The translations under genes and the position numbers were made by a program. A stretch of 64,000 nucleotides of DNA from the UHGV virus genome UHGV-0028991, one strand, 5' to 3'. Below, one piece after another: positions 3,176 to 60,838 of this stretch. This stretch comes from a virus. The notes under the pieces were generated by a model. That model saw only the letters and a list, made by a program, of their open reading frames with translations, did not search any database and was not told the DNA's origin. Each line of letters opens with the position of its first letter. Positions within the stretch are counted from its first letter, which is position 1.

Positions 3176-3247
3176 CTAAGTCCTCCCATTTATTTGTTGC
3201 CTGCATTATATCACATATCAAACAATTTGTCAACCCCTATTTTGGAA

Positions 3248-3886: not shown

Positions 3887-3905
3887 ACCGCATTTACCCC
3901 TTTAT

Positions 3906-16018: not shown

Positions 16019-16215
16019 GCCTTCACCTCATAATTATACATAAATTTCTGCATATTTATACATTCTCGCTGAACTTCCACGGCTTGTGCGGCGTATTTGT
16101 AACTGTACTTGTTTGCCTTTTTCTCGGATTGTTCGACTTGATAACTGATAAGCAGTATAACCACAATCAGAATCATTAGGATTGCCGCCCACAAATGGTC
16201 TTTCCAATCTCGCAT
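16015..16215 (-). CDS. small hypothetical membrane protein
   Basis: 66 aa with one predicted TM segment (AAILMILIVVILLISY). ATGA-type overlap with the downstream gene. Confidence 0.25.
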   Translation of the reverse strand: MRDWKDHLWAAILMILIVVILLISYQVEQSEKKANKYSYKYAAQAVEVQRECINMQKFMYNYEVKA

Positions 16216-16270: not shown

Positions 16271-17341
16271 TCAATAGGTTTTACAAAAATTTTTGTAAAA
16301 ATCTGAAATTCCTGATACCAGTGCGTCAATATCGGACTTTTTTGTATATCGGCTAAATGAAATTCTGATAGTTTCTTCGGCGGTTTCTTTTGAGTAACCA
16401 TAGCCGTCACACAAAACGCGGTAGTCATGTTTGGCAGAGCATGCCGACGCTCCTGAACCGACATAGACATTTTTTGTAGAGAGATATTGCTGCAATGCGT
16501 CCGCGTTAATGCCAGAAAGATAAACAGCATTGATTGCGTCTGTCTTATTTTCTCCATGTCCGCCAAGTACAAACGCACAATCGTCTGTCACTTTAATAAC
16601 CTCTTTGAGGAAATAATCGACAAATCCCTTATAGGTCGCTTCACGATTGCCCGCAATATCCTGCGCCCATTCAAAGGCAGACACCATGGCAGAAATTGAT
16701 GCAACATCAGGAGTGCCGTGAAGAATGCCATAGTTGTTATTCGGGTCGTCTGACAATTCAAACCTCTTGCACAACTCATCACATAACCACAGCACGCCAA
16801 TATGTGGTCCATGGAACTTATGCCCACTGAACCAACAAGCGTCATATTTAAGTTTCTTCTGCGAACAGTCAACTTTACCAATTGCGGCAGTTAAATCACA
16901 ACCGTTAAAATCATATTCGTCCAGACATGAATCATCTGTTCTTTTTGGCAGGAACCAAGGGTTCTCAAACACATCGCCAGTCATTTGATTAACGCGCTGC
17001 CAAAATCTCAATGACACAAGCCTCAACGGCGATTTCTGAGCGACATCCCATACGCTGTCATGCTCTTTTGCATCGGTGCAAATCAAACCATCCCACAGCC
17101 GTCCGAGCATCTCAACGCTCTCTGTTGCGCATCTTGTAAAGATAAATTTGCCCTTGCCACCTGTGTCAAGCAATTCATGTAGCCGTAAACGGCATTTTTT
17201 TAGCGTCTGACGCTCGTTTATAGCATAGGGTGTATTGGCATTGCCCCACAGGTTGTCGCCCCGTACAGCGAAAAATTTTGGCATTGTCGTTGCGGCGTTA
17301 TCGAGATAAACAATGTTATCTTTCATTTTTCTCTCCTTCAA
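16271..17341 (-). CDS. cysteine desulfurase (class V aminotransferase, NifS/IscS-like)
   Basis: 356 aa. N-terminal IVYLDNAATT; FIFTRCATES; SGHKFHGPHIGVLW, where the SGHK lysine is the PLP-binding residue. Confidence 0.6.
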   Translation of the reverse strand: MKERKMKDNIVYLDNAATTMPKFFAVRGDNLWGNANTPYAINERQTLKKCRLRLHELLDTGGKGKFIFTRCATESVEMLGRLWDGLICTDAKEHDSVWDVAQKSPLRLVSLRFWQRVNQMTGDVFENPWFLPKRTDDSCLDEYDFNGCDLTAAIGKVDCSQKKLKYDACWFSGHKFHGPHIGVLWLCDELCKRFELSDDPNNNYGILHGTPDVASISAMVSAFEWAQDIAGNREATYKGFVDYFLKEVIKVTDDCAFVLGGHGENKTDAINAVYLSGINADALQQYLSTKNVYVGSGASACSAKHDYRVLCDGYGYSKETAEETIRISFSRYTKKSDIDALVSGISDFYKNFCKTY

Positions 17342-18867: not shown

Positions 18868-19704
18868 TTAGAATGTCATTGCCGAAACGGCTGCGTTGAC
18901 CGCTTTCTCGTTGGTCTTGATATATCTGCTCGTAGTAGAAATAGACGAATGATGCAGTACATCACGAATAACCGCAACAGGTACACCGTTCTCGGACATA
19001 ATGGATGCACACGCCGCTCTCAGCGAATGCGCAGAAATCTCAAATGGCAACCCCGCTTTTCGCCCAACAACCTTCAGCGTCTTGTCGAAATTGGCGTTAT
19101 TGATTTTGCCGCCCCATGTGGAAGTAAACAAATATTCACCGCCGTCTTTTCTCTTCGGCAGATATTGTTCAATTGCCACAATATTTGCATCGCTGAAGAA
19201 CGCAAAGAATTCCTTGCCGCCCTTACCTGTCATAGCAATCTTGTTCGCACCGTCTTTGCGCATTTGTTCGTATTGCTTAAGAGTGATGCTTGTGAGCTCG
19301 TTGAATCGAAGCCCAGTAGTTGCATAGCAGGAAATCAGCGCCTTATCGCGGGCATTTGTCGCGGCTTTAATAAGCGCAGACACCATATCTGCACTCATAA
19401 ATTCCTTCGGCTTAGAATGAATGCTCGGGCGCTTAACATTCGCCATTGGATTCTTTTCAATCGTCCCGCATTCGCACAGAAACTTGAAATAAGAATTGAG
19501 CGCGTTAAGCTTAATATTGATTGTCGCAGAAGAAGCATCGGACATGCTTTCCATCCATGCGAGAATATCATATTTCTCAACGCGCTCTGCGTCCTTATTT
19601 GCAAAAGCAAAGAAATTTGCAATTGCCTCGGCATATCTTGCGATTGTGTTTGCGGCTTTCTTTTCTGCTCTCAGGCTGATAAGATACTCATTAAACTTCG
19701 TCAT
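18868..19704 (-). CDS. int: tyrosine recombinase / phage integrase
   Basis: 278 aa. C-terminal HSLRAACASIMSENGVPVAVIRDVLHHSSISTTSRYIKT carries the R, H-x-x-R and Y catalytic signature. Confidence 0.7.
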   Translation of the reverse strand: MTKFNEYLISLRAEKKAANTIARYAEAIANFFAFANKDAERVEKYDILAWMESMSDASSATINIKLNALNSYFKFLCECGTIEKNPMANVKRPSIHSKPKEFMSADMVSALIKAATNARDKALISCYATTGLRFNELTSITLKQYEQMRKDGANKIAMTGKGGKEFFAFFSDANIVAIEQYLPKRKDGGEYLFTSTWGGKINNANFDKTLKVVGRKAGLPFEISAHSLRAACASIMSENGVPVAVIRDVLHHSSISTTSRYIKTNEKAVNAAVSAMTF

Positions 19705-22395: not shown

Positions 22396-22469
22396 TGGTA
22401 CTGTAAGATAGTGTCGAACTATCGTCTATCGGTTATAAGCCGATTGCTCTTCCGTTGAGCTATTACAGC
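22396..22469 (-). tRNA. tRNA with anticodon UAU (reads AUA; tRNA-Ile-like), CCA encoded
   Basis: Minus strand GCTGTAA-TA-GCTC-AACGGAA-GAGC-A-ATCGG-CTTATAA-CCGAT-AGAC-GATAG-TTCGACA-CTATC-TTACAGT-A-CCA. All four stems pair; the first acceptor pair is G-U. Anticodon loop CTTATAA gives anticodon TAT. Confidence 0.6.
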
Positions 22470-27518: not shown

Positions 27519-28328
27519 TTAATCCTCCATTCTATATTTTTCTGTTTTTGTCCAGCCGTCAAACCAGTATAAAACAATATCCGCAGTATTTACGCCGAGC
27601 GCCTTCGATATTTCATTCTTTTCCTGCCCGTATTCGTGCACATAAATATATACTTCCTCGCCGCTTTCGTCTTGTATGCTCCACTCCGTGCCCTCGTTAA
27701 AGTATTCAGCTTCAAAATATTTGAGCTCCTTTACTGTCCATTCGTCCGACGGATAATAAATATAATTCCAGTCAGATTGGCCATAACCATGGATAATTTT
27801 GCAATTCCATTTTTGCCCGGTAACGACCGTAAGAATGGCGCATAAAATAGGATATTCCTCGTGGCTTTTGCACCATGCATATTGCAAAACTAACTTTTTT
27901 AATGCTCCTATGTCTTGAGTGCTATACTTTACTTTTCCCGGCATTTCTGGGGGCAAATATTCCACAATTGCTTCTGTGATATTTTTATACCATTGTTTCC
28001 ATTCGTTGCGATTTTCCAACACTTCCGCCAATTCTCCGACGGAAAGAACGTTATAGACTCGTTCGAATACTTCCGGGCAATGCTCTATATAATCACGATT
28101 GCCGCATACGGCTATATTGTCTGGGAAAAATTCATCGCTTGAAAACAACGGGCTTTCTTGATATTCGGGCGCTACCTGATAAGCTTTGTATTTCATTTTT
28201 GCAATCTCCTTTTTGATTTTTGATTTTTCAATTTCAATTTTCAGCGTTGCGGTTGCGGGCTTGTTTGTCGCTCTTGCGTAGTTCGTGCAGGATGCCAAAA
28301 AACAGGCAACCAGGCACAAAGCCGCCAA
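27519..28328 (-). CDS. putative lipoprotein
   Basis: 269 aa. N-terminus MAALCLVACFLASCTNYARA has a lipobox-like LAS-C after a hydrophobic signal. Confidence 0.5.
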   Translation of the reverse strand: MAALCLVACFLASCTNYARATNKPATATLKIEIEKSKIKKEIAKMKYKAYQVAPEYQESPLFSSDEFFPDNIAVCGNRDYIEHCPEVFERVYNVLSVGELAEVLENRNEWKQWYKNITEAIVEYLPPEMPGKVKYSTQDIGALKKLVLQYAWCKSHEEYPILCAILTVVTGQKWNCKIIHGYGQSDWNYIYYPSDEWTVKELKYFEAEYFNEGTEWSIQDESGEEVYIYVHEYGQEKNEISKALGVNTADIVLYWFDGWTKTEKYRMED

Positions 28329-28406
28329 TTAAACAAAGCGCGAAAAATTCCATTTTGAAAACCTCCTTGAATTCTGAAAACTGATTTTTCAATCTGCATT
28401 TTCGAG

Positions 28407-31568: not shown

Positions 31569-31865
31569 TTATTTATGTCCGGTTCGGTCTGCCACCTCTT
31601 TTCTGAGGTATTTTAGATAGAACAGCGCTTTATCAATGTCTTGTAGCCCGTTTTTCTTTTTAAAGCGCCATGTATATTTTATTACATTGGCAACACAGAC
31701 GGCTTCAATTCCTTGTTTGTCTACGGTTGCAGCTTTTATTGCGTCAAGACATTCAATTCCGCCTTGCGTGTAATGAGATGGATGCTGCACCATATCGTCC
31801 TTGGGTTTGGTTGTTTCAGATTTTTTCATTGCTTTCCTCCAATTCTTCAAGGTCTTTATTTCCAT
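31569..31865 (-). CDS. DUF3310-like phage protein
   Basis: 98 aa. HPSHYTQGGIECLDAIKAA resembles the HYxxGxIExIDxI signature of the DUF3310 family. Confidence 0.4.
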   Translation of the reverse strand: MEIKTLKNWRKAMKKSETTKPKDDMVQHPSHYTQGGIECLDAIKAATVDKQGIEAVCVANVIKYTWRFKKKNGLQDIDKALFYLKYLRKEVADRTGHK

Positions 31866-32976
31866 ATCGGACTTCTTGTCCGTATATGTTCTTTAATGCG
31901 TCAACTGCCTCTTCAACAGTGATATAGAAGAATTCTCTGTTTGGCGATACGCGCTTAGAGTCGAAATGTGCATGCATCTTAGATTCAATGTCAAATGCAT
32001 CATCACAGAAGCAATAAGCATTAAGCGCAAACGGCTCAGGAAGTGAGGACGAGCTGAGCTCTCGCACGCGCGTATAAGGAGACAATCTCCTTGTAACGCC
32101 AATTTTCTGAATTCTGGGCAAGGACGGTGAAGAAATAACATACACAAATCCCGCTTTTTTATTTCTTGCTCTGTACTGCAAGCTTGCAATTCTGCGGTCA
32201 ATGTTGGTTATGTTTTGCTTTAAGACTCTTGCCTCTTCGTCGTTGAGCGTGCGACCATATGCAAGTTCCATTGATAGGCGTTCTTCTTTGAGCTTTCTTG
32301 TTTCGGCTTCAATTTCAAGTAGCAGTTGTTCCTGTTCTTTTAACAGGCGTTTTTCTTCTCTGAGTTTAATCCGTTCTGCTTTTGCCCGTTCTTTGATAAG
32401 GACATTAAGGCGCATAAGTTCAATGCGTAGGCTTGCATATTTTGAGTTTAATGAAACGCCTACCATTTTTGTTTTGCGTTGTAGAGTATTAAAGCGGTCG
32501 GTTGCATGTTTCATCGCAAGCGCAAGAGGACTTACAGAGCAAGTCTTTTCTTTCTGTTCCACGTAAGCGTTGAATGCATACAGGCACCCAGTCGCAACAG
32601 CCTTTTGCAAATCATTTCCTTTTGCTCTTGAGCCTTCGATAGTATATTGCTCGTCAACTCTCCACAGACCATCTGCTGAAAGTAACTTTCTTGTTGAGTA
32701 ATCACTGCCCGCCAGTTCTTGTATTTGCATTAAGACGGTCGCTTTCTTGCTTTCAAGTTCAGAGCAAGATAAATTACTGGGTATGATAGTCCTAATTCCA
32801 AAGTCTGACAGAACTTCTTGTGTTTCTATTGAATCACGCAGAAGTTTCAGGCGCTCATTGAGCTCGTTGGTTTCGGCGTTTAATCTTGCTTTCGTTGATT
32901 CAAGCGAAGCGACTTGGCGCTCAAGCGTTTTCTTTTCTGTTTTTAATTTATCAAACATTTTATTTCTCCTAACCAT
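31816..32976 (-). CDS. DUF4041 coiled-coil / T5orf172 (MUG113, GIY-YIG-like) domain protein
   Basis: 386 aa. N-terminal two-thirds is coiled coil. C-terminal GFVYVISSPSLPRIQKIGVTRRLSPYTRVRELSSSSLPEPFAL...ESKMHAHF...REFFYIT matches the T5orf172 domain pattern. Confidence 0.6.
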   Translation of the reverse strand: MVRRNKMFDKLKTEKKTLERQVASLESTKARLNAETNELNERLKLLRDSIETQEVLSDFGIRTIIPSNLSCSELESKKATVLMQIQELAGSDYSTRKLLSADGLWRVDEQYTIEGSRAKGNDLQKAVATGCLYAFNAYVEQKEKTCSVSPLALAMKHATDRFNTLQRKTKMVGVSLNSKYASLRIELMRLNVLIKERAKAERIKLREEKRLLKEQEQLLLEIEAETRKLKEERLSMELAYGRTLNDEEARVLKQNITNIDRRIASLQYRARNKKAGFVYVISSPSLPRIQKIGVTRRLSPYTRVRELSSSSLPEPFALNAYCFCDDAFDIESKMHAHFDSKRVSPNREFFYITVEEAVDALKNIYGQEVRYGNKDLEELEESNEKI

Positions 32977-35989: not shown

Positions 35990-36244
35990 ATGAAAATTAA
36001 CTGGAAGGTCAGACTGAAGAACAAGTATTTTTGGTTGACGATTATTCCTGCCCTGTTCCTTTTGGTCGGTCAGGTGCTTAGAGCGCTTGGCATTGATTAT
36101 GATACGGACGCGGCGAGTGCGGCTGTGGTTGATGTTATCAATGCTATCTTTGCTCTTCTGTCCGCATTTGGTGTTGTGGTCGATATGACTACGCAGGGCA
36201 TTAGCGACAGCGACAGAGCGCTGACTTACGACGAGCCTAACTAA
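35990..36244 (+). CDS. small membrane protein (two TM segments; holin-like topology)
   Basis: 84 aa. TM1 WLTIIPALFLLVGQVL; TM2 VVDVINAIFALLSAFGVVV. Confidence 0.4.
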   Translation: MKINWKVRLKNKYFWLTIIPALFLLVGQVLRALGIDYDTDAASAAVVDVINAIFALLSAFGVVVDMTTQGISDSDRALTYDEPN

Positions 36245-36255
36245 CGAGGTGTTGA

Positions 36256-37449
36256 ATGAAACGGAAAAACGGAGAATCGTTAATCCAGTATGCGGGGAGA
36301 GCTACTGATGCTCTCTCCGAAGGATTGATTGATTATAATGAATGGGCAGGGGCAGTCGTTGGAGACGGCGACATGTATGCCCGTGAAAATTTAAGAAGAT
36401 GCAGTGTGTTCTTCAATCAATTTGTTCAAAATGTTAGAAATGATGTAATTGAAGGATCTGATGAAGATGTTGACGAGCTGAGAGATGCCACAGACGCGCT
36501 TATTAAAGAGCGCAAGAAAATCGAGACGGCAAATCTTGAGCACCAAGAATATTTCAGAAAGGTTGCAAGGCAAGAGCTTCTGACGGAACAGATTGAAGAA
36601 GCAATTGGCAAGTTGCCGAAGATTCAGCCCGTTCACATGGATTATACCTATCCTGCTGAAACAACAGGGCTGTTGATTATTTCTGACGAGCATTTTGATT
36701 CGACCTTTGAAATTAAGGGGCTTTACGGCGAGACCGTCAATAAGTATGACAAAGATGTGTTCAAGACACGAATGTGGCATTTGCTTGCAATGATGGAAAA
36801 CGACCGCTTTGATTACGACCAGTTGTTTGTGGTCAGTGCGGGCGATGCCGTTGAGAACATTCTGCGCATGAGTTCGCTTCAGAAGTTGCGGCATGGAGTT
36901 ATTGATTCTACTATTGAGTTTGCTGAATTTATGAGCCAGTGGCTCGTAGAAGCGAATAAGCGGCTTGGCGTTCCGATTCGGTTCGCCATCATTTCCGGCA
37001 ACCACGATGTGTCAAGAGTATTGACACAGACACCTGAATTTCCAGAAGAATCGCTTGCAAAGATTATTCATGCTTTTATGGATTTGAGGCTTGCTGATGT
37101 TTATGGCGTGAATGTCGAGCCTTACGGTGATGTATTCTTTACAAATCTTTACGGGTCTAATTTGTTGTTTGCTCATGGCGAGACGGGCGACCTTGTAAGC
37201 CTGATAAACTACTATGAAAACCTGTATAATATTGAGATTGATTGTCTGTATGCGGGACATTTGCACAGAAGCGAAACAAAGGCGGCTGGTGTCGGAGCGG
37301 TTGGAGACCGCGAAGTTATTCGTGTGCCGTCAATTTGTGGAACGGACACATACGCTAAGAAGATTCTAAAGAATTCTCGTGCGGGCGCTTACTTTGCATT
37401 GTACAGCGAGCTTGGACGAGAATTGAACAAGATATATTATTTGAATTAA
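36256..37449 (+). CDS. calcineurin-like metallophosphoesterase (SbcD/Mre11-like nuclease fold)
   Basis: 397 aa. VVSAGDAVEN (GD motif), IISGNHDV (GNHD motif), YAGHLHRSE (GHxH motif). Confidence 0.55.
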   Translation: MKRKNGESLIQYAGRATDALSEGLIDYNEWAGAVVGDGDMYARENLRRCSVFFNQFVQNVRNDVIEGSDEDVDELRDATDALIKERKKIETANLEHQEYFRKVARQELLTEQIEEAIGKLPKIQPVHMDYTYPAETTGLLIISDEHFDSTFEIKGLYGETVNKYDKDVFKTRMWHLLAMMENDRFDYDQLFVVSAGDAVENILRMSSLQKLRHGVIDSTIEFAEFMSQWLVEANKRLGVPIRFAIISGNHDVSRVLTQTPEFPEESLAKIIHAFMDLRLADVYGVNVEPYGDVFFTNLYGSNLLFAHGETGDLVSLINYYENLYNIEIDCLYAGHLHRSETKAAGVGAVGDREVIRVPSICGTDTYAKKILKNSRAGAYFALYSELGRELNKIYYLN

Positions 37450-37511: not shown

Positions 37512-38402
37512 GTGCCGACAGCAAAAAAGAAAGCTCCGACCAAAAGCATTAGGACGGATAGCAGGAATGTGCGGCTGTGCATTGCCTGTGGGTCAAGAAA
37601 GCCAATAAGCGATTTTTACTCAACGACATCCGTTCCCAACATGCAATTTTTTGTGTGCCGCAGGTGTGGCAAAAGATTACTTAAAGACCACACAGATAAG
37701 GTAGAAAAGCCGATGGCAGCACTGTGGCTTGTTTTGGCGCAAATGGGCGTACCGTTCATTTTAGAGGCGTGGTACGCCGCTTCGGAAATGTATGAAAACG
37801 ACAAAACGGGTGATTTAATTACATTCTACTTGATTTCGCTTGCTAACTTAAATCGCGTATATGAGGGCTTTTGGCAATCAGATGCCATGTTGTCCGACAT
37901 GATAAAGACGGGCGTTGGTGGCGAAGTTAAGGATATTGACCGCCATCTCGCAGACGCAAACAAGTATAGAGCGCGTTGGGGCGATTATACAGCCGATGAT
38001 TGGGATTGGCTTGAAAGAGAATATTTAGACTATACGCGCGACCTCGAAGCCATATCTGTTTCGGCGGAAAAGGCATATAGGTCTTTATGCAAATGCAATT
38101 TGCGCTTTAAGAAAGAAAGCGAGGCAGGCGAAGAAACAAAATCTACAACTGATGAAATCCTGAAATGGATGAAATTGTTGCGCATAGATGATTTCAGAGA
38201 CAATACAAAATCGGACGAAGATAGATACATAGACCACTTGGCATGGAAATTTGAGAATACTGAGCCTGCTGAATTGACGGATGAGGAGCGGTATAAGGAT
38301 GTTAAGGGCTATGAGAAAATATATAATGATTGGATGCGGTCAATGCAGAATATGATTGCGGGGACGAAGAGCTACCCCAATATTCCTAAGGAGCAGTTGT
38401 AA
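37512..38402 (+). CDS. putative terminase small subunit / DNA-packaging accessory protein
   Basis: 296 aa. Lies directly upstream of the terminase large subunit; N-terminal zinc ribbon CIACGSR...CRRCGK. Confidence 0.35.
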   Translation: MPTAKKKAPTKSIRTDSRNVRLCIACGSRKPISDFYSTTSVPNMQFFVCRRCGKRLLKDHTDKVEKPMAALWLVLAQMGVPFILEAWYAASEMYENDKTGDLITFYLISLANLNRVYEGFWQSDAMLSDMIKTGVGGEVKDIDRHLADANKYRARWGDYTADDWDWLEREYLDYTRDLEAISVSAEKAYRSLCKCNLRFKKESEAGEETKSTTDEILKWMKLLRIDDFRDNTKSDEDRYIDHLAWKFENTEPAELTDEERYKDVKGYEKIYNDWMRSMQNMIAGTKSYPNIPKEQL

Positions 38403-39286
38403 TGCCGACCGCAAGAGAAAACGAACAATTCCGCAAGTCCGAAAATGTCAAAAAGTGGATAACTTATTATCGCAGGAATTGGGACTTATTTGCTGAAGAA
38501 GTTCTTGGCATTAAGCTATATCCTGTGCAGAAGCTGAAATTGCACATGATAGGTGTTGCCGACGAATATTGGGACTTTTCGTCTCGTTCAACGGCGAAGT
38601 CTTTTATTGTTGGTGTTGCCGCATTTTGTGCAATGAGTTTATATCCGCATTCAGAAATTGTTGTTACATCATCTTCTATCCCGCAGTCTGCAAGACTTGT
38701 AAGAGATAAGATGATAAAAGAAATCATTAAGAAATATTCGCCATATTTGAAGTATTTGTATGAGAAGGGCTATTTGACAGTTAAAATGCTTGATGAGGGC
38801 GTTTTCGTCTTAACGAACACATTAAATGAATCAACGACAACGGTCGCTGTGTGTTCTGAAAATGCTCGTGGTATGCGTTCCACATTTACGATATATGAAG
38901 AGACGCGATTGCTGAAGAAGTCAATTCTCGACTCTGTATTTGAGCCGATGGGGCACGAGCGTCCTGCGCCGTTTACACTTGACCCTAAGTATAAAACAGA
39001 CAGGTGGATAAAGGCGGCAAAATCTTGCTATATTTCATCTACTCGGTATGAGTGGGAATGGTTTATCAGAGAATACAGAAAATGCGTTGAGGGCTATTAT
39101 ACATCAAAGCACGAGAAGTACATTCCTATGGCAGAGGACATTTATACTGCAATTCAAGAAGGAAGCCGAACATGGGCGGACTATCGAAAGGCAAAGAAGA
39201 AAATGTCCAAAGCGGATTTGAAAAGGTTCGCATTAAACATATTGAATTGCTGGAATACCCTTAGAGTTTTATCAGCTACAACATAA
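38402..39286 (+). CDS. terL: terminase large subunit, N-terminal ATPase segment
   Basis: 294 aa. LYPVQKLKL, SSRSTAKSFIVGVAAF (deviant Walker A, compare T4 gp17 SRQLGKT) and ARGMRSTFTIYEETRLL (Walker B region, compare T4 gp17 ARGNSFAMIYIDE). Confidence 0.6.
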   Translation: MPTARENEQFRKSENVKKWITYYRRNWDLFAEEVLGIKLYPVQKLKLHMIGVADEYWDFSSRSTAKSFIVGVAAFCAMSLYPHSEIVVTSSSIPQSARLVRDKMIKEIIKKYSPYLKYLYEKGYLTVKMLDEGVFVLTNTLNESTTTVAVCSENARGMRSTFTIYEETRLLKKSILDSVFEPMGHERPAPFTLDPKYKTDRWIKAAKSCYISSTRYEWEWFIREYRKCVEGYYTSKHEKYIPMAEDIYTAIQEGSRTWADYRKAKKKMSKADLKRFALNILNCWNTLRVLSATT

Positions 39287-39613
39287 GCATGAAATAAGGC
39301 TAAGTGTGATATGCGAGAAAATGATAGAAATTGGGCAATCAGCAGCGAAGCCTCGAATAGAGGAACGTTCAACGACTATCCCGCAAGGGAGTACACAACA
39401 AGCGATTGGTTGTGGAAGTGGTATGCCTTTGCACAAAAGCAAAGTGAAGATATAGTCTTATCTGCGCGGAAACGCGCAGTCTTTCAAAAAAATGAGAGAA
39501 ACGAGGAGTAGCGACCTATGCTTAAAAGAGTAAATGGGGGACAGCAAGTTGCAAATTGTTTTTGTTTGTCTGCAAACAAACAAATTACCCCATTTGTTCT
39601 TGAATAATAATCT

Positions 39614-40474
39614 TTGTTGCAGGAAGGATTTTATAGCATGAATATTTTTGAGGTTAATGATAAAAATAAATTCTCTTTTAGTTGTATTTATTTATGGCAA
39701 AATCTAATAAATGGGAAGGTTTATGTTGGGCAGACGGTGGATTTTTATGCCCGCATGAAACAATATTTACGCGAAGACACAAGTAGGCGTATCTGCATGG
39801 CTATTAAAAAGTATGGATTTGATAACTTTAGTGTTGAAGTGTTGGAAAGAGACGTGTCGCACCAAAATTTAACACAACGCGAGCAGTATTGGATAGATTT
39901 TTATGATAGTGCCAACGAAGACGTCGGATACAACATATGTCCGGTAGCGGAAAGCACAAGAGGATATCACCACAGAGAAGAAGACAAGAAGAGAATGAGC
40001 GAAATAGCCAAAAAACGTTTCAAAGAACACCCAGAACAAATAAAACGCGGGAAAGAGAATCACATGTTCGGCAAAAAACATTCCGAAGAGACAAAAAAGA
40101 AAATAAGCCAAAGTATAATGGGCAACCAAAATGTAAAAGGCAAAACATGGAAGCTTTCGGAAGAAATATGTCGTCGTAGGTCGGAGAGGATGAAAGGTAA
40201 GAGGAATGGAGTGGGGCACAAATGTCCAGAAAGCGTAAAAGAGCATCTTAGAAGATATAATAAAAATCGAATCTGGACAGAGGAGATGCGAGAGCAATCG
40301 CGGATTGCACATCTTAACATTGGCGGGAAGAAACTGATGTGTGTCGAAACGGGAGTCACTTATGAATCCGTGGCTGAAGCGGGTCGTGCCTTGAACAAGG
40401 ACCCGTCCTCAATTTCTAAGTGTTGTCGCGGGCAACAACGAATCGCATATGGATTTCACTGGCAATATATATAA
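39614..40474 (+). CDS. GIY-YIG homing endonuclease with NUMOD3 repeats
   Basis: 286 aa. FSCIYLWQNLINGKVYVGQTVDFYARMKQY (GIY-YIG). HMFGKKHSEETKKKISQS (NUMOD3-like). It lies between the two terminase halves. Confidence 0.65.
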   Translation: MLQEGFYSMNIFEVNDKNKFSFSCIYLWQNLINGKVYVGQTVDFYARMKQYLREDTSRRICMAIKKYGFDNFSVEVLERDVSHQNLTQREQYWIDFYDSANEDVGYNICPVAESTRGYHHREEDKKRMSEIAKKRFKEHPEQIKRGKENHMFGKKHSEETKKKISQSIMGNQNVKGKTWKLSEEICRRRSERMKGKRNGVGHKCPESVKEHLRRYNKNRIWTEEMREQSRIAHLNIGGKKLMCVETGVTYESVAEAGRALNKDPSSISKCCRGQQRIAYGFHWQYI

Positions 40475-40502: not shown

Positions 40503-41483
40503 ATGTTTTCAATGGAGATGGAAAATGAAACACAGGGTAGTCCCGAAGGTGCATTCTTTAGCCTAAAGAATTTTAAGGACAATCAAGAAATTCCAGAGGC
40601 ATATGTTCCGCCTACCGATACACAAGTGTTGGCGAACACAAAGCCGCCGTTCAGAGAAAAACAAGCGGACGAAATACGGCTTGTCGGCGTTGACTACGCA
40701 TTTGCGAACACAACATTTAAGACGGGATACGGCAACGATAATACAATTATTGAGTGCTGGTCGGCTGTCTGGAAAAACGGTCGGTTCATTCGTAGTCTTG
40801 AATATATGGAACAATGGCCCGCATCGGACAGTACAGGCGCACAATGGCGCGTTCGTGAGCTGTTTTGGGACTATAATGCGGACTTCATTGTAAACGACCT
40901 TAGAGCAGGCGGAGAAACACTATATAACCTTATGACCGAAAAAAGGACGCATCCAAGGCGCGGCTATATGTGGGATTCACGAGGATTGACAGTCGCTCAG
41001 AATTTTAACTATCACCTCGTAACAGAATCAAAGCTTGCCGACTTGCGTATGCGGACGGTCGATAAGGATGCTGTTCCGTGTATTATTCCTGCTCAGGGCT
41101 CGGCACAAAAGAATGGTGTTTGGTGGCTTGCACTTAGAAAGCATCTTGAATGCAATGACATAAAGATGCTTATATCTATGGCAGACAAGCAGCAAGAGCT
41201 TGAAGATTCGGGCGAGTATTTCAAATTGACCTCAGAAGAATTGGCAGATAAGCTTGCCCCTTATGGCGAGACAGACCTGCTTATTCAGGAGGCAATCAAA
41301 CTTAACACAGAAATAAAGGGCGATAACTTATATCTTAAAGAAGACAACAAGGCGACTAAAGACCGTGTTGTTGTTATGTCTTATGTCAACATTGTAATTG
41401 ATAAAATCGAAATGGAATGGAATAAACGCCTGACCAATGACGATGAAGATTATGATATTGACGATTTACAACTTGTATATTAA
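40503..41483 (+). CDS. terL: terminase large subunit, C-terminal nuclease segment
   Basis: 326 aa. IRLVGVDYAFANTTFKTGYGNDNTIIECW matches the start of the terminase RNaseH-like nuclease domain (GxDxA...D.T). Confidence 0.55.
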   Translation: MFSMEMENETQGSPEGAFFSLKNFKDNQEIPEAYVPPTDTQVLANTKPPFREKQADEIRLVGVDYAFANTTFKTGYGNDNTIIECWSAVWKNGRFIRSLEYMEQWPASDSTGAQWRVRELFWDYNADFIVNDLRAGGETLYNLMTEKRTHPRRGYMWDSRGLTVAQNFNYHLVTESKLADLRMRTVDKDAVPCIIPAQGSAQKNGVWWLALRKHLECNDIKMLISMADKQQELEDSGEYFKLTSEELADKLAPYGETDLLIQEAIKLNTEIKGDNLYLKEDNKATKDRVVVMSYVNIVIDKIEMEWNKRLTNDDEDYDIDDLQLVY

Positions 41484-54678: not shown

Positions 54679-55107
54679 ATGGCGAATAAAAACACGAGCT
54701 GGAATATTGGCGTAGGTATTGAGATAAAGACAAGCACAAGCGAAATTCAAAAGAAATTGAATGAAGCGGCGAAAAATGTCAATATCAATATCAAGGCAAA
54801 AGGGGCTAAGGAAGCATCTGACGGAATAAGCAATCTGTCAAAGAACATGAACGAAGCCTCGTCCAGCGCGAAGAATTTTGAATTAACATATCAAGCGGCA
54901 AACATGATTATGGAGAAGAGCATAGAAATTATTAGGTCTATGGTCTCTGAAGTCTATACTATGAATGCCGCGCAGGTCGAATTAGCAAAGGTCACAGATT
55001 TGTCCGGCGAATCAATGGACGAATATGTGAGCAAGTTGACCGACATGGGAGCAGAAGTTGCTAAGACGGGTAAACTATGGACGGGAGCCCGTGTGATGGG
55101 ATGGTAA
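54679..55107 (+). CDS. tail tape measure protein, coding segment 1
   Basis: 142 aa. Typical N-terminal region of a tape measure protein (...ELAKVTDLSGESMDEYVSKLTDMGAEVAKTG); ends at a stop. Confidence 0.45.
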   Translation: MANKNTSWNIGVGIEIKTSTSEIQKKLNEAAKNVNINIKAKGAKEASDGISNLSKNMNEASSSAKNFELTYQAANMIMEKSIEIIRSMVSEVYTMNAAQVELAKVTDLSGESMDEYVSKLTDMGAEVAKTGKLWTGARVMGW

Positions 55108-55398
55108 ACCAGCACAGAGAATTGTTCAAAACCCAGTAAAACCTAAAGCCTGTTTAACTACAACATGGGGATGAAATAAGCCCAAGTGTGAATGTGGGAA
55201 ACTGTTAAAAATAAGCAGGATGGCATATGGTCGAAAGACCTAAGTGCAATTTATCCCGAATATTATACATTATTTGGGACAAACAATGGTAGATTGGGCG
55301 CGAAGTCCCGAACAGGGATGTGTCAAGAGACTCTATAAGTTCGACCCCTCCAAATTAAACAGGGTGAAGAAATAGTCCAGAATATTTTGAAAAAGGTA

Positions 55399-55427
55399 TT
55401 GACAATCTAAAAGTTATGTGTTATAAT
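55399..55427 (+). promoter_or_regulatory. consensus sigma70 promoter inside the first tape-measure intervening sequence
   Basis: TTGACA, 17 nt spacer, TATAAT, with a TG extended -10. Followed by an AAAGGTGG ribosome-binding site and ATG 55445. Confidence 0.6.
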
Positions 55428-55444
55428 GGCATCAACAAAGAAAG

Positions 55445-55690
55445 GTGGGCTTGATTATGTTGTTAATTGCAGTTCCTTTGATGATGCTTTATTGCGTCTG
55501 TTATGGCATTGCTTGTTTCTTCAGGCATGTTGTTTTGGGCATCCCTTTTGATAAGGACGTTGCCAAGAAAAACAATCCCGAGCAATATAAAAAATGGGAA
55601 GAAGAAGATAGGCAGGCTGCAGAGCAGTACAGAAAAGAAGAAAAAGAGCATAACGATTGGGGATTTATTGATTACTCCAAGAAAGATTGA
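55445..55690 (+). CDS. small membrane protein with highly charged C-terminus (holin-like or moron)
   Basis: 81 aa. MGLIMLLIAVPLMMLYCVCYGIACFF spans one or two TM segments; the C-terminal K/E-rich tail follows. It is driven by the promoter above. Confidence 0.45.
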   Translation: MGLIMLLIAVPLMMLYCVCYGIACFFRHVVLGIPFDKDVAKKNNPEQYKKWEEEDRQAAEQYRKEEKEHNDWGFIDYSKKD

Positions 55691-55703
55691 ATAAAAGTCC
55701 CAG

Positions 55704-55910
55704 ATGGTGGAAAGCGCTGCCCAATTTGCGAAAGCTGGATTTAATGAAACCGATGCTGCGCAATTAGCGAAAGTTTCCTCCATGTACCAAAACATTGCCG
55801 ATGAGCAACTTTCGGCGGGCGAAGCATCTGAGTTTATTATTTCTCAGATGAAAGCATTTAATATTACTGCTGAGGAAAGCTTACATATTGCTGATGCGGT
55901 TTACTTTTAA
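55704..55910 (+). CDS. tail tape measure protein, coding segment 2
   Basis: AAQFAKAGFNETDAAQLAKVSSMYQNIADEQLSAGEASEFIISQMKAFNITAEESLHIADAV matches the start of the TP901-type tape-measure core. Confidence 0.45.
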   Translation: MVESAAQFAKAGFNETDAAQLAKVSSMYQNIADEQLSAGEASEFIISQMKAFNITAEESLHIADAVYF

Positions 55911-56277
55911 TTGGCCGCTACGAGGTGAATTGTCGGGGACGAGGGTTCAGCGCCCTATCTGCGCAATTTTATGCGTGGATGCCTAAAGATTTGAACACCA
56001 ACCTATCATGGTGACATAGATGGGGGCTTAGAGTAATTAACTAAGGCATGGTAAAAGGTTCAAATATATATGGTCAATCCGCAACTAAGCGTCTGCATTG
56101 CAGATGAAAGCTCACAGACTATCCCATAGGTCTTAACAGACAATAGGAGTACGGCCCAAGCCAAGGGTGGGTGAGAACCCCTTAAATGGAAGCGCCTCGC
56201 TTTGGTATTTTACCAAGGAAGATATAGTCGGGTCTTATAAGAAATTTATAAGCGTTTGAATATTCAAACGGTCGTAG

Positions 56278-56424
56278 TTGGCGGCTACGGCAAACTTATA
56301 TCGCAATAACGTATCAAATAATATGTCTGTTTCTTCAGCAGATTTAGCTCGAAACCTCGGAAATATGTCCGCCGCAATGTCTGTCGGCGGGAACACGATG
56401 GAAGAGAGCATTGGCTTAGGTTAA
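56278..56424 (+). CDS. tail tape measure protein, coding segment 3
   Basis: Open frame ...NVSNNMSVSSADLARNLGNMSAAMSVGGNTMEESIGLG continues the tape-measure core motif; flanked by stops. Confidence 0.4.
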   Translation: MAATANLYRNNVSNNMSVSSADLARNLGNMSAAMSVGGNTMEESIGLG

Positions 56425-56695
56425 TAGGTCAATTAAAAACCTATAAATTGACGGGAAGTTCCTTAGAGCTCTATATACTAAACCGTATTAGTAATAATGC
56501 GGCGGAGCAAGTAATGACTGCTGTATAGTAACAAATATAGAGATTGGATAATCCGCAGCAAGTTATCAATAGGTCATTGATAACTGTTCAACGACCAGTA
56601 AGCCCTACTAATTCAGTAGGCATACTCGCAAGCGCGGGGAAACATAGGTGAAAAAGATATGGTCTAATCTCTGTCGAAAGGCAGAGGGCTAATAA

Positions 56696-59686
56696 AGCCG
56701 TTTAGAGAGTAGCGTCTCTAAGCAAATAAATTATGTATTAACTGGCATTACCGAGATTACTCGTTCAGCGGCATCCGCATCTCGTGCATTAGTCACAATC
56801 CAAAGCAGATTTAATCAGATTGTAGATGAATCTTCAAGCACTGGTCAGAATCTGTTAAAATGGTACACAAAGCACGGAATTGCAGTTAAGGATGATGCTG
56901 GGCAGTTAAGGTCGCTGTATGATGTTATGTCCGACCTTGCGCCTAAGTGGAACTCACTTACCAAGAATGAGCAATCTTATTTCATGCAACAGGCGGCGGG
57001 TGCCCGGCAATCTCAAAATCTCGCCGCATTGCTTTCTAACTTTAAGGGCGTTCAAGAAGCAACTGCCCTTGCATATGATTCTTCAGGTTCGGCAGCAGCA
57101 GAAAATGCAAAAGTCCTTGAATCTCTTGATGCAAAAACAACCGCATTAAAAGCAACATGGCAAGATTTTGCAAACAAAACCATTGACAGCGAATTAGTTA
57201 AGTCTTTGCTTAACTTGGCTAATGGCGCGTTAAAAGTATTGAACACCGAAGCAGGCAGAACTTTAACACAATTTGTTTTGCTGAGCGGCGTTTTCACTGG
57301 GCTCGGCGGAATTATTGCGCAGGTCATTCCGGTCGCAATAAAATCGATAAAAGCATTTACATCTGTTTTGGCTGGCGCGACAACTGGCGTAAAAGCATTG
57401 CAGGCGTCTGTGCCTGTCATTGGCATTGCAATGGCGGCGCTAACGGTTATGATAGGGCTTGTTAAAGATGCTTATGATGCGCAGTATGGCACAATCAACA
57501 AGATAAACAAGTCCATAGAAACAATTAACGCCACCTATACCGATGCCACAAATGTTGCTAAGGCAAATGCCGAACAGGCAAAATATTTGGTTGGGGTAAT
57601 TTCAGACCTTAACAAGGTTGAGAATATGTCTACGAGTGAGGCGTATAAGTACAAAAGCGCTGTAGACCAACTTAATAAAATTTACCCCGACTTGAATCTC
57701 AGCATTGGCGAACACACTGGCAAAATCCAAGAAGATACTGGTGCAATTTATAAACGCATCGAAGCGATGAAGCAAGAGGCGCTTCAAGCGGCGTTGCAAG
57801 AAAAGCAAGCGGCTTATTATGGGCAAATAATAGAGTCAAAAGCATCTCGCGAATCTGCAGGCGATGAACTACGCGCTGAGATACAAGAGCTCCAAGAAAA
57901 GCTAAAACAACTCAGAGACGCGTTCGGATTCGATATAACGGGACTCGGAGAAAACCTTGATGTCGATGTCTCTTTAATGGATACGGATAGTCTGATTCGC
58001 TTTTACGAGAATTTCCTTCGATATGGAACATTCCCGAGCTATATGTCAAAAGAGATTAGCGCTACCATTGAAGAAATAAGGCAGTATGACGAGGCGATTG
58101 AAAACGCGGAAGGAAAATTAGAAGGAGCTAATGATGCGGCTCAATCGCTCGGGGAAACTGTTGTAAACCTTAACACCCAAGCAGGCAAAAATGCAGGAGC
58201 AACAAAAACTCAGCGAGATAATGTTGACAATCTCGTAAAAGCACAAAATGCATTAAACAAGGCAATTCAGGACTACAATGCTTATGGCGGTTTGCAATCT
58301 GAAACGCAAGAAGCATTAGACGAAGCGTTGCCTGGTCTAAACGAACTGCTTTATGACGAAACAGGCGCGTTGACGTCTGCTGGTAAAGCCGCGTTGCGCG
58401 GAAGCAAGGAATTGGCGCAATTCGTTCTGTTGCAAAAACAAGAGGAATTACAGGCTCAGAAAACGGCATTGTCGCACGCCGAAGCCGCAAAAGCAGAGGC
58501 GCTAAGATTCAGGACAAGGCAGAGTTTAATGGGGCAAACACAGCTTTTGTCAATAGCTGAAGAAGCCGAAGCTGAAGCAGCCCGACAGGATGCATTAGCA
58601 ACCGCTGCAGAACAGAACATAAAAAATATCGAAGATGAGATTGCGTGGCTGGAACAACTGCTCGCAACATACAGCTCTGGTTCGAGTGCCGCATCTTCCG
58701 CCGCCGACGCTTACAAAAAAGCATTTACAGACTGGCTTGCATATAAAGACCATCAACTTGCAATGGACGAAATCACAGAAGAGCAGTATTATGCTGAGCT
58801 TACTGAAATGGTCGATAAATTCTTTAAGGGCAGAGCTGAATATCAAGAAGAATATTGGCAATACTCTGAAAAGATTTATGCGTATGAAAAGAAGCGCATG
58901 CAAGAGCTGGTCGAAGAATCGACTAAGGCGGTCGAGGACGCAGTTGATAAAATCAACGAAAAGTACGATTCTGAGTTGTCGCGGCTTGAAGAAGTCAACG
59001 ATGCCCTGTCCGACCAAATTGAATACGAGAAACTGCTCGATGAAATGGCTAAGGCAAGGGAGCAGAAAAAGCTTGTATACAAAGACGGTCGATTCCAGTA
59101 TGTGCAAGATGTGGATGCAATATCTGCCGCGCAGGCTAAGCTTGATGAATATAATCGCAACAAGGGCTTAGAAGCAAGTAAAGCTGATATTGAAGCCCGC
59201 AGAAAAGCAGAGGTCAGACAGACCATTCTCGACAAGATGCAGGCTAATAGCGCAGCATGGGCAACATCAAGTAGTCCCGCTGAGCGTGAGGCATTGCATA
59301 ATGCAAATGTTGAGCTGGCGAAACTGCTTGAAGATAATTCGACCTATGATGCCGCAACGGGCAAATGGTCAAGCTATGCGGGCGGCACACTTGGTGCGGC
59401 TGGCGGAATGAGCCTTGTCGGAGAGAATGGTCCCGAAATGCGTATTCTTAATCGCGGCGACGGCATACTCACAAGTGGCGTTACTAAGAATTTGTTCGCA
59501 TGGGGCAGCACGTCTCCGAGCGATTTTGTATCTGCACTCAAGGGCTTAATGGGCTTTAAGCTTGGCAATTCCAGCAACACTACTGTGAATGTCAGCAACC
59601 TTGAATTGCCCAATGTAACAAATGCAAGAGAGTTTGTAACCGGGCTGAAAAATCTTGCACTTCAATATGCTTACGAGAGGGGATAA
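56696..59686 (+). CDS. tail tape measure protein, main coding segment 4
   Basis: The frame is open from 56696 (...LTGITEITRSAASASRALVTIQSRFNQIV...DDAGQLRSLYDVMSDLAPKW) with no in-frame start before M at 56927. Long coiled-coil body; C-terminal GGTLGAAGG. Confidence 0.55.
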   Translation, partial: SRLESSVSKQINYVLTGITEITRSAASASRALVTIQSRFNQIVDESSSTGQNLLKWYTKHGIAVKDDAGQLRSLYDVMSDLAPKWNSLTKNEQSYFMQQAAGARQSQNLAALLSNFKGVQEATALAYDSSGSAAAENAKVLESLDAKTTALKATWQDFANKTIDSELVKSLLNLANGALKVLNTEAGRTLTQFVLLSGVFTGLGGIIAQVIPVAIKSIKAFTSVLAGATTGVKALQASVPVIGIAMAALTVMIGLVKDAYDAQYGTINKINKSIETINATYTDATNVAKANAEQAKYLVGVISDLNKVENMSTSEAYKYKSAVDQLNKIYPDLNLSIGEHTGKIQEDTGAIYKRIEAMKQEALQAALQEKQAAYYGQIIESKASRESAGDELRAEIQELQEKLKQLRDAFGFDITGLGENLDVDVSLMDTDSLIRFYENFLRYGTFPSYMSKEISATIEEIRQYDEAIENAEGKLEGANDAAQSLGETVVNLNTQAGKNAGATKTQRDNVDNLVKAQNALNKAIQDYNAYGGLQSETQEALDEALPGLNELLYDETGALTSAGKAALRGSKELAQFVLLQKQEELQAQKTALSHAEAAKAEALRFRTRQSLMGQTQLLSIAEEAEAEAARQDALATAAEQNIKNIEDEIAWLEQLLATYSSGSSAASSAADAYKKAFTDWLAYKDHQLAMDEITEEQYYAELTEMVDKFFKGRAEYQEEYWQYSEKIYAYEKKRMQELVEESTKAVEDAVDKINEKYDSELSRLEEVNDALSDQIEYEKLLDEMAKAREQKKLVYKDGRFQYVQDVDAISAAQAKLDEYNRNKGLEASKADIEARRKAEVRQTILDKMQANSAAWATSSSPAEREALHNANVELAKLLEDNSTYDAATGKWSSYAGGTLGAAGGMSLVGENGPEMRILNRGDGILTSGVTKNLFAWGSTSPSDFVSALKGLMGFKLGNSSNTTVNVSNLELPNVTNAREFVTGLKNLALQYAYERG

Positions 59687-59956: not shown

Positions 59957-60838
59957 ATGGCAAACATGAACGCAATTGATGTTTCGTTGTATCAGACTAT
60001 TTATGACGCGAACGCACTGAAGCAGGACGGCATTAAGCTGTGCATGATTAAGGCTTCGCAGGGCAGATATTTGAACGGCTATGGTAGCTTCTTCAAAGAC
60101 AGAAAAATGGACGAGCACGCACAGAAATGCATTAACGCCCATTTGCCAATTGGCTTCTATCATTTTCTTTGCGCATTTAATGTACAGGAAGCCAAGCAGG
60201 AAGCCAAGAAGTTTTTGAAAGCAATTAAGCCGTATGCGCAGTATGTGTCTTATGTGGCTCTCGACTGCGAGAATTATAACAACACGGCGTTGTTGTGTCA
60301 GAATAGAACGCAGTTGACCGAGTCTTGTAACGCATTTATGAAAATTTGCGAAGACGAGGGCTATCTGCCCATGCTGTATACAAACCCCGACCATCTGAGA
60401 AACAAGCTTTATGCCGAGCGCATTAAGTACCCGCTGTGGGTAGCACTGTACGGTGAGGCTAAGCCGCAGTATGACGCAATGATTATGTGGCAGAAGGGTC
60501 CTGTTAGTCCGAACGGTGTGACGGCTAATACTGACGGAAACATCTGCTATATTGCGGATGCCGCACTCGCTGTTGTAGAACTTGCAGAAAAGGGATTTAT
60601 TGCATCTCCGACATATTGGATTAACCAACTTGATAATGTTAAGTGGTTGCCTGAATTGTTTGTTCAGGTAAACGGCGTGTTTAATTATCGCATTGGTCGT
60701 TCTAAGACGGTCGATGAAGCATGCAACTATATGAAAGAGCAGGGCGCAATGAACAGCCCTGAATACTGGATTGCACAGTCCAAAAAGGTCAAGCACCTTG
60801 CCGATTTGCTGAAGAACTTTGGTGGCGGCAGAAAATAA
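59957..60838 (+). CDS. GH25-family muramidase (endolysin) with C-terminal repeated cell-wall-binding motifs
   Basis: 293 aa. IDVSLYQTIYDANALKQDGIKLCMIKASQG...GFYHF is a GH25 signature. The C-terminal repeats are YWINQLDNVKWLPELF and EYWIAQSKKVKHLADLL. Confidence 0.6.
   Translation: MANMNAIDVSLYQTIYDANALKQDGIKLCMIKASQGRYLNGYGSFFKDRKMDEHAQKCINAHLPIGFYHFLCAFNVQEAKQEAKKFLKAIKPYAQYVSYVALDCENYNNTALLCQNRTQLTESCNAFMKICEDEGYLPMLYTNPDHLRNKLYAERIKYPLWVALYGEAKPQYDAMIMWQKGPVSPNGVTANTDGNICYIADAALAVVELAEKGFIASPTYWINQLDNVKWLPELFVQVNGVFNYRIGRSKTVDEACNYMKEQGAMNSPEYWIAQSKKVKHLADLLKNFGGGRK

Follow-up and report, generated by a model that had tools for sequence, protein, structure and literature searches.

The tape-measure gene of the window analysed here (the whole 64,000-nucleotide stretch of viral DNA) is interrupted by a predicted group I intron whose 3′ part carries a small expression cassette, composed of a consensus sigma-70-type promoter, a Shine-Dalgarno sequence and a gene for a 77-amino-acid single-pass membrane protein. 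This anatomy, together with the independent class of the promoter, is in our judgement very probably correct. Taken as a whole, the locus is best explained as an intron-borne, moron-like gene for an early membrane protein that would act in superinfection exclusion, a combined reading to which we give slightly less than even credence.

The intron and the gene it interrupts

The tape-measure gene occupies positions 54679-59686 and is split into four exons. Exon 1 (54679-55071, plus strand), which matches TMP_N and PHROG tape-measure families, ends in ...AKTG (ACG GGT) and is followed by an insert of 635 nucleotides (55072-55706, plus strand). Exon 2 (55707-55900, plus strand, its end being approximate) runs from VESAAQFAKAGF to ADAV, matches PhageMin_Tail and PHROG tape-measure families and shares 52% identity with the tape-measure protein of Enterocloster phage PMBT24, which is uninterrupted at this site and lacks the whole insert. 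Two further group I introns, neither containing an ORF and both with inferred boundaries and junctions taken from the PMBT24 alignment, were placed on the plus strand at 55901-56303 and 56423-56735; their Rfam matches cover 55848-56251 (34.6 bits) and 56365-56686 (51.5 bits, which exceeds the gathering score), respectively. The Rfam match for the first insert (RF00028, 22.5 bits, E 0.005, gathering score 50) is weak and partial, extending over P7′ and P9 at 55242-55399, a part which contains the P7′ motif GAAGAAAUAGUC and a P9 hairpin with a GAAA loop. Its identity was decided by comparison, namely by covariation in P1 and P2, the terminal G and the restored reading frame, on the strength of which we conclude that the insert is a group I intron; the expectation of the initial annotation that the cassette lies inside an intron of a late gene was thereby borne out.

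The ribozyme core, P1 to P9, was assigned to the first ~330 nucleotides of the intron (55072-55398, plus strand) from the region of the Rfam match, covariation and folding. The end of exon 1, ACGGGU (55066-55071), pairs with the internal guide GCCCGU (55088-55093, plus strand), which forms the 3′ strand of P1 and provides the U55071-G55088 pair at the 5′ splice site. Among the relatives P1 occurs in three compensatory states, ACGGGU with GCCCGU, ACUGGU with GCCAGU and ACCGGU with GCCGG, so that changes in the guide track the synonymous codon choice of the exon (ACU GGU or ACC GGU in relatives), and the U-G pair at the splice site is invariant (7/7). An RNAalifold consensus of seven divergent copies contains 69 pairs, 22 of them with compensatory changes, P2 and several other helices being among those that covary. 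The P7 strands are GACU at 55329-55332 and AGUC at 55374-55377, while the GAAA-looped P9 hairpin lies at approximately 55381-55400, such that the -35 element of the cassette overlaps its final two bases.

At the other end of the intron the relatives share the 3′ consensus AGUCnGAAAUG/GUnGA (the slash marking the splice site), and position 55706 was assigned as the terminal G because G55706 is invariant, while position 55703 is G here and A in the relatives examined. The predicted splice yields the junction ...ACGGGT/GTGGAAAGC (ACGGGU/GUGGAA in the RNA) and joins ...AEVAKTG in frame to exon 2, which reads VESAAQF, 27 copies having the same junction; in relatives exon 2 always begins with V(E/D/S)(A/S)A, or with MNAA in the L039 type. 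The cassette extends from the -35 element after P9 to the stop codon of its gene, leaving 16 nucleotides of intron. This 16-nucleotide tail, variable at only two positions (55694/55695 and 55703), together with the last ~55 nucleotides of the ORF constitutes a 3′ zone at 55636-55706 (plus strand) that ends in G 55706, and in alignments of close copies that last stretch of the ORF is invariant at synonymous sites also. Within the zone UUGGGGAUUU is predicted to pair with AAAGUCCCA, and the zone probably forms an RNA element by which the remote 3′ splice site is positioned at the core.

The promoter and the membrane-protein gene

The promoter of the cassette (55399-55427, plus strand) consists of the -35 hexamer TTGACA (55399-55404), a 17-nucleotide spacer with the TG of an extended -10 element (55419-55420) and the -10 hexamer TATAAT (55422-55427). 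In the sequence scan it scored 12/12 plus the TG, a perfect consensus, in agreement with the strong promoter of its own (TTGACA-N17-TGtTATAAT) that had been proposed for the cassette, and transcription is predicted to start near A55434/55435. A Shine-Dalgarno sequence, AAAGGTGG (55441-55448, plus strand), is located 8 nucleotides upstream of the ATG at 55457, with AAAGGAG or GAGGTG as its equivalents in relatives. The promoter including its spacer is invariant across eight close copies, in which synonymous sites of the ORF differ (dS up to 0.5), and in divergent relatives the hexamers, the spacer length and the TG are retained despite a completely different spacer sequence. A terminator-like site was not found between the stop codon at 55690 and exon 2; transcripts of the cassette would consequently continue into exon 2, and the cassette is not a textbook moron of promoter, gene and terminator.

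The initial annotation ranked this promoter as the best match in the window. It is indeed perfect, yet it shares that rank with eight other sites, as TTGACA-N14-TGnTATAAT occurs nine times without mismatch, against 0.1 occurrences expected even when up to one mismatch is allowed, and all nine sites have the fuller form TTGACAA-N13-RTGnTATAAT. The other eight sites (starting at 3205, 5744, 10445, 10907, 21566, 22557, 26596 and 32989) are on the minus strand, most of them just upstream of minus-strand genes that include a RecJ-like gene, a tRNA and a T5orf172 nuclease-like gene, in a replication region to which PolIII-alpha and DnaB also belong. On the plus strand the class has a single perfect member, the intron promoter, which is situated inside the structural module. 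From these matches we infer that it belongs to the early promoter class of the phage, and that the cassette would be transcribed by host RNA polymerase together with the early and replication genes. Both its function as a promoter and its early timing are thus read from the consensus and from the genes that accompany the other sites of the class. Possession of a strong sigma-70-type promoter of its own supports the earlier suggestion that expression of the cassette could be independent of late transcription.

The gene itself (55457-55690, plus strand) is open from the ATG at 55457 through the stop codon at 55688-55690. A product of 81 amino acids starting from GTG 55445 had been listed for it, a start that we have corrected, because in the protein collection all homologues begin at the ATG and are 77 amino acids long. 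Seven further copies were recovered from metagenomes and IMG/VR, with protein identities of 92-97% and one copy (L096) being identical. In the eight copies the variable sites are distributed over the three codon positions as 6/5/23 and the mean pairwise dN/dS is 0.077, which identifies the ORF as a protein-coding gene under purifying selection. Its Lys/Glu-rich codons also give rise, incidentally, to a long ORF on the opposite strand (55463-55795).

The small protein with an N-terminal hydrophobic span and a Lys/Glu tail that the initial annotation described was recovered by two approaches, as Kyte-Doolittle hydropathy and an AlphaFold2 model (helical, mean pLDDT 67, moderate confidence) agree on a single membrane helix at the N-terminus, with a long charged helix behind it. 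The model places the membrane helix at residues 5-26, followed by a short helix and then by a Lys/Glu-rich helix at residues 41-67. There are no positive charges before the membrane helix, and R23, H24, K33, K37 and K38 come after it, a distribution which, according to the positive-inside rule, predicts that the N-terminus is outside and the C-terminus inside. The Lys/Glu-rich helical tail of ~50 residues would then be cytoplasmic. Other small genes encoding a membrane helix and a charged tail are present in the minus-strand replication region, at 16015-16215 and 28234-28392.

Searches of Pfam, PHROGs, NCBIfam and PADLOC returned no meaningful family match for the 77-amino-acid protein, and neither gp15/YebO, Imm, Sp and Ltp nor the defence families showed similarity to it; with Pfam at E up to 1 there were weak matches to FAM176, MpPF26 and ORMDL and none to YebO. 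No nuclease motif or domain (GIY-YIG, HNH, LAGLIDADG and others) was detected with Pfam, in contrast to an ORF that follows an intron elsewhere in the window (39210-39479) and has GIY-YIG and NUMOD3 domains. Nothing below E = 1 was obtained by tblastn against 50,697 phage records, and an exhaustive HMM search of 1.84 billion representatives retrieved the protein's own cluster plus one weak match, to a protein of 1583 amino acids. Neither of the two protein collections searched contained relatives of the window type outside its own clade, and 185,579 species-representative bacterial genomes contained no copy of the gene, whether in a prophage or otherwise; all recovered copies of this type are on viral-like contigs.

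The slot and its cargo in related phages

Related introns were collected with a 17-mer from the core, which retrieved ~35 IMG/VR viral contigs with related cores, and with a degenerate core pattern, which retrieved 15 metagenome contigs; 27 loci were at the same ...TG/VE... site, a few of these being overlapping fetches of one contig. All 27 carry, directly after P9, a small ORF whose product has a membrane helix at its N-terminus and ends in a charged tail, and in all but one or two a recognisable promoter precedes the RBS and the ORF of 61-80 amino acids. The -35 elements are TTGACA, TTGACT, TTGATA or TTGATT and the -10 elements TATAAT, TATAGT or TATGCT, separated by 17 nucleotides and nearly always with TGn. 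Absence of the cassette from relatives with an otherwise identical insert had been named as an observation that would count against the proposal; no such case was encountered, as the cassette was present in 27 of 27 copies at this site and in 15 of 15 metagenome matches to the degenerate pattern, and exact core searches in IMG/VR returned the same clade only. Related introns at other sites of the tape-measure gene have either a large nuclease-like ORF after P9 (L005, L062) or no ORF (L040, L057).

The cargo of the slot falls into at least seven types, between which protein identity is 19-45%. Variable sites in other cargo types are distributed over the codon positions as 8/7/26, 10/10/29 and 2/0/4 with dN/dS of ~0.1, so that four cargo types in all have dN/dS values of 0.08-0.12 and variation concentrated in third positions. 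In pairs such as L018/L050 and L061/L090 the ribozyme cores are 93-100% identical, while the cargo proteins are 25-45%, the DNA from promoter to stop codon 27-60% and the flanking exons ~50-85% identical. Identity falls at or just past the -35 element and recovers at the 3′ tail; in the pair L061/L092 the break is within the ORF. These comparisons describe a conserved scaffold with a hypervariable expression cassette, the scaffold probably spreading horizontally. Homology of the window type to the other cargo types was not demonstrable by hhalign (probabilities of 0.8-24%), and an HMM from which the window type had been left out failed to recover it (E = 2.5), its sole link to another type being a shared heptapeptide, CVCYGIA; we do not claim a single protein family for all cargo types.

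For one sister type, that of L050, homologues were identified on the chromosomes of gut Ruminococcus and Ruminococcaceae MAGs at a conserved locus, with ~75% amino acid and ~80% nucleotide identity confined to the coding sequence, and a more distant copy was seen in another genus. The chromosomal gene order is NrdR, a gene for a 193-amino-acid protein, an SH3_3 lipoprotein gene, the small gene, another lipoprotein gene and LysM-GH18; the homologue is thus an operon member between lipoprotein genes, near LysM/GH18 and amidase genes. As homology between cargo types could not be demonstrated, evidence from sister types, the bacterial homologues included, transfers to the window type by position and architecture only.

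Candidate functions and known systems

The mechanism that we propose begins with host RNA polymerase, which would fire the intron promoter, with a start at ~55434, at the onset of infection alongside the early genes, and which could also fire it in any carrier state. The early product would be a membrane-anchored protein with a cytoplasmic tail, made by transcription that is independent of the late tape-measure transcript; splicing would take the cassette as a whole out of the latter. Removal of the cassette by splicing would leave the late operon undisturbed, and in combination with separate early transcription would make the intron a safe harbour for an early moron-like gene within a densely packed late operon; a useful cargo may in turn help to retain an intron that has no nuclease of its own. 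Of the features that define a moron, the cassette has its own promoter, as judged from its sequence, and no terminator of its own; it also has the marks of a module that is exchanged horizontally and missing from some relatives, as the unit from promoter to stop codon is 27-60% identical on cores that are 93-100% identical, the whole insert is absent from the PMBT24 gene, and a sister coding sequence occurs in bacterial chromosomes.

As to what the protein does, we tentatively propose as most likely, by analogy, a membrane-resident superinfection-exclusion factor that would interfere with tape-measure-mediated genome entry by related phages. Exclusion would explain why the gene is so closely linked to that for the tape measure, why the cargo has diverged so extremely while the intron scaffold hardly varies, as expected of an arms race, and why one sister cargo type has homologues on chromosomes. 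With the predicted topology hardly any of the protein would be exposed on the cell's exterior, so that genome entry would need to be blocked inside the membrane or at its cytoplasmic face. An extension of this proposal, for which our expectation is low though not negligible, is that introns of this lineage are vehicles and scaffolds for recombination, carrying a hypervariable gene for exclusion or immunity that is transcribed independently and is genetically locked to the tape-measure protein, the membrane step of which it targets. The near-identical ribozyme core would then offer homology for the swapping of cassettes between co-infecting phages, and a beneficial cargo would account for the persistence of a nuclease-less intron.

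The main rival to exclusion is a different early membrane function, in particular host takeover, whereby the protein would block division or envelope synthesis or counter a membrane-bound host defence; we give it about one chance in four. Large Bacillus phages provide a precedent in SPO1 gp56, a small membrane-anchored division inhibitor under strong early sigma-A promoters, and the early-class promoter, the membrane helix, the charged cytoplasmic tail and the similar genes at 16015-16215 and 28234-28392 in the replication region are all in keeping with such a role, as is the position of the sister type's bacterial homologue in a lipoprotein operon near LysM/GH18 and amidase genes, which hints at envelope biology. 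Host takeover, however, leaves unexplained why throughout the lineage the slot remains attached to the tape-measure gene and why its cargo is hypervariable on a near-invariant scaffold, host targets being usually conserved, and no family match points to it. Expression from a lysogen that benefits the host, such as under envelope stress or during colonisation, rather than the infection cycle of the phage itself, would suit a strong host-type promoter within a late operon, the Xer-like tyrosine recombinase encoded at 18868-19704 and a sister type with bacterial homologues. We consider it unlikely, given that the same perfect promoter type drives replication genes, which a prophage would need to silence, that no copy of the gene was present in the 185,579 representative genomes, that all copies are on viral-like contigs and that the closest cultured relatives were isolated from sewage as free phage.

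A role in lysis, as holin, antiholin or lysis-timing protein that permeabilises the membrane to release the GH25 endolysin, has a low probability. The endolysin gene (59957-60838) has no adjacent holin gene, and one membrane helix with a highly charged C-terminal tail fits some holins, the feature not being specific to them; Phage_holin_1 and phi LC3 holins are likewise small and membrane-spanning with a charged C-terminal tail. The initial annotation on this ground put the cassette forward as the missing holin, a proposal that falls away because the window already contains a canonical holin gene at 35990-36244 (plus strand), whose product has two membrane helices by hydropathy and matches Pfam Phage_holin_1 (98.3 bits, E 3.7e-28) and PHROG holin families (E 2e-25), so that the cassette is not needed in that capacity. 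The cassette protein, unlike these holins, gave no holin match when compared with Pfam (E up to 1) and PHROGs (E up to 0.1), and its gene is 4.3 kb upstream of the endolysin gene, in the intron of another gene, with a promoter of the class used by replication genes rather than a late signal, while the sister cargo has chromosomal, non-prophage homologues. Equally improbable is a type I toxin-like or addiction module that would stabilise the nuclease-less intron or the phage genome and be held in check by an RNA or by splicing. Small membrane toxins such as BsrG, YonT and TxpA are known from Bacillus prophages, and a cargo that is small, has a membrane helix at the N-terminus and a charged tail, is under a strong promoter and lies within a selfish element that has no homing nuclease would be compatible with such a module. 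Against it, none of the seven cargo types examined had a conserved antisense promoter scoring at least 10/12 within the cassette or behind it, proteins of 61-80 amino acids exceed most type I toxins in length, the bacterial homologue occupies an unremarkable place in an operon, flanked by lipoprotein genes, and no RBS-sequestering structure was detected, folding of the region 55378-55475 being no better than that of shuffled sequences (z = +1.2). Finally, the ORF could be a non-functional remnant, either a decayed homing-nuclease ORF, as nuclease-like ORFs occupy the same position in related introns, or a chance ORF in an A/T-rich intron loop. This is scarcely credible and is effectively refuted by the selection analysis, that is by dN/dS of 0.08-0.12 with third-position variation in four cargo types, in addition to which the promoter and RBS are conserved and no nuclease motif is present.

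In the T4 nrdD/sunY intron, as in the intron described here, an ORF separates the catalytic core from a 3′ splice site that lies far off. The ORFs of T4 introns have their own promoters, embedded in the transcription units of the genes that they interrupt (PMC2988022). The cassette thus resembles I-TevI, I-TevII as well as I-TevIII of the td, nrdD/sunY and nrdB introns in being an intron ORF with its own, differently timed promoter. The T4 ORFs, however, are homing nucleases, whereas the present gene specifies a membrane protein without nuclease motif; T4 has phage middle or late promoters inside early genes, here a host-consensus promoter is found inside a late gene; and the RNA hairpin that hides the RBS in T4 has no counterpart in the cassette. 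T4 therefore already exemplifies the intron ORF that has a promoter to itself and is timed differently from the interrupted gene, and it is the class of cargo and the direction of the timing that differ.

Our proposal of superinfection exclusion has its closest parallel in gp15 of phage HK97, a small inner-membrane exclusion protein encoded by a tail-operon moron that lies beside the tape-measure gene and has its own promoter (PMC3594210). Gp15 blocks genome entry, the specificity of the block maps to the tail region of the phage, and the protein originates from bacterial yebO, non-prophage YebO homologues having a similar N-terminus and a diverged C-terminus (PMC3594210). The two systems share an architecture, with the difference that the present gene lies within rather than beside the tape-measure gene, and both have bacterial homologues, here for a sister cargo type only. 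The gp15 gene is intergenic and has a terminator, the cassette is in an intron and has none; no sequence similarity between the proteins was found, and the host here is a Gram-positive Clostridia-type bacterium, probably of the Lachnospiraceae or Ruminococcaceae. Exclusion by the cassette is argued by analogy. T4 Imm and Sp, small early membrane proteins of a virulent phage which stop the genomes of later-arriving phages from entering, are looser analogues, as they show no sequence similarity, are not intron-borne and function in a different type of envelope. IStrons of Clostridioides and relatives, in which a group I intron is fused to an IS200/IS605 element, similarly combine a Clostridia-type group I intron with cargo other than a homing nuclease in the 3′ part while splicing is kept; their cargo consists of transposition genes that move the element, whereas the cargo here is a membrane protein without mobility function.

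The phage group I introns known to us carry homing nucleases or nothing, and targeted literature searches for intron-borne morons or membrane proteins in tape-measure introns found nothing relevant. To our knowledge this would be the first phage group I intron with a promoter-driven accessory gene for a membrane protein that is not a nuclease, an ordinary accessory gene with a host-type promoter that is kept in the intron across a lineage of gut Clostridia phages. It suggests that introns can serve as safe insertion sites for early genes in late operons and that a useful cargo can maintain an intron which lacks its own nuclease, and it supplies a testable superinfection-exclusion candidate in gut Firmicutes phages, for which such systems are little known. 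For genome annotation, cassettes of this kind make tape-measure genes appear fragmented, and the small genes inside them can easily be overlooked or mislabelled as holins.

Group I introns in the tape-measure and structural-module genes

The tape-measure gene (54679-59686) contains three group I introns within about 1.7 kb, the first of which (55072-55706) is the only one to carry an ORF, the second (about 55901-56303) and third (about 56423-56735) having none. The set of tape-measure introns varies among relatives, and in the related phage contigs L018, L050 and L084 just the first is present. A peripheral loop of the window's first intron carries a 29-nt insertion (TTTATCCCGAATATTATACATTATTTGGG) at 55255-55283, which is absent from the seven closest copies; an extension of similar size occupies the same position in the intron of the relative L039. 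A fourth group I intron of the window (39210-39479; Rfam, 77 bits), together with a GIY-YIG/NUMOD3 homing-nuclease ORF located 3' of it (39614-40474), splits a structural-module gene into 38402-39286 and 40503-41483, the ORF being placed 3' of the core as in tape-measure intron 1.

Possible spread of the first-intron scaffold and homologues of a sister cargo type

Comparison of the related phage contigs L018 with L050, and of L061 with L090, established that the intron core (positions 1-300) is 93-100% identical, whereas the flanking tape-measure exons share only ~50-85% DNA identity. As the core is near-identical while the exons around it have diverged, these alignments suggest that the scaffold, despite lacking a nuclease of its own, has nonetheless spread horizontally of late. 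In several relatives (L002, at ~2985-4077, L004, L007, L039/L063 and L098) an additional intron is present 15 nt into exon 2, inserted after GTGGAATC(T/G)GCAGCT at the equivalent of window position 55721/55722, thereby leaving a micro-exon of 15 nt flanked by group I introns on both sides. This extra intron, downstream of the micro-exon, bears nuclease-like ORFs, of 265 aa in L002 (with a weak match to DUF2726) and of 145 aa in L039 (with Cys-rich, zinc-finger-like motifs), and in such genomes the nuclease-bearing intron 15 nt downstream could mobilise the first intron in trans.

The L050-type cargo, a sister type found in the same intron slot, has chromosomal homologues in Ruminococcus/Ruminococcaceae MAGs (L077-L083, L100 and L101). 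Their setting is a conserved operon, with a lipoprotein gene on either side and NrdR and LysM-GH18 nearby, and the GC content of the small gene is 44% as compared to 55-60% in its flanks.

A recurrent promoter class

Nine perfect matches to the promoter TTGACAA-N13-RTGnTATAAT are present in the window as compared to an expectation of 0.1, the latter computed for TTGACA-N14-TGnTATAAT with up to one mismatch. Eight are on the minus strand (3205, 5744, 10445, 10907, 21566, 22557, 26596 and 32989) and the ninth, at 55399, is on the plus strand. Immediately downstream of one of these is a tRNA (22399-22469), and the gene that follows another (31816-32976, T5orf172 nuclease-like) is embedded in the plus-strand module.

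Lysis-related and replication-module genes

A canonical holin gene (35990-36244) and a GH25 endolysin-family gene (59957-60838) are 24 kb apart, and the ORF next after the holin (36256-37449) matches an exonuclease PHROG, not a lysin. Owing to its location between the tape-measure gene and distal tail genes, the GH25 gene may specify a tail-associated lysin instead of the lysis enzyme.

On the minus strand, a PAPS-reductase-like gene (14292-15287) lies near a gene for a class-V aminotransferase of cysteine desulfurase-like type (16271-17341) within the replication module, and the pair may belong to a pathway that modifies DNA with sulfur (Dnd-like) or modifies its bases. An Xer-like tyrosine recombinase (18868-19704, minus strand; Phage_integrase and SAM-like N-terminal domain) is likewise located amid replication genes, and with it the phage may be temperate, plasmid-like or virulent. 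Two small minus-strand ORFs of the replication-gene region (16015-16215 and 28234-28392), each encoding one membrane helix followed by a charged tail, may be related in function to the intron cargo.
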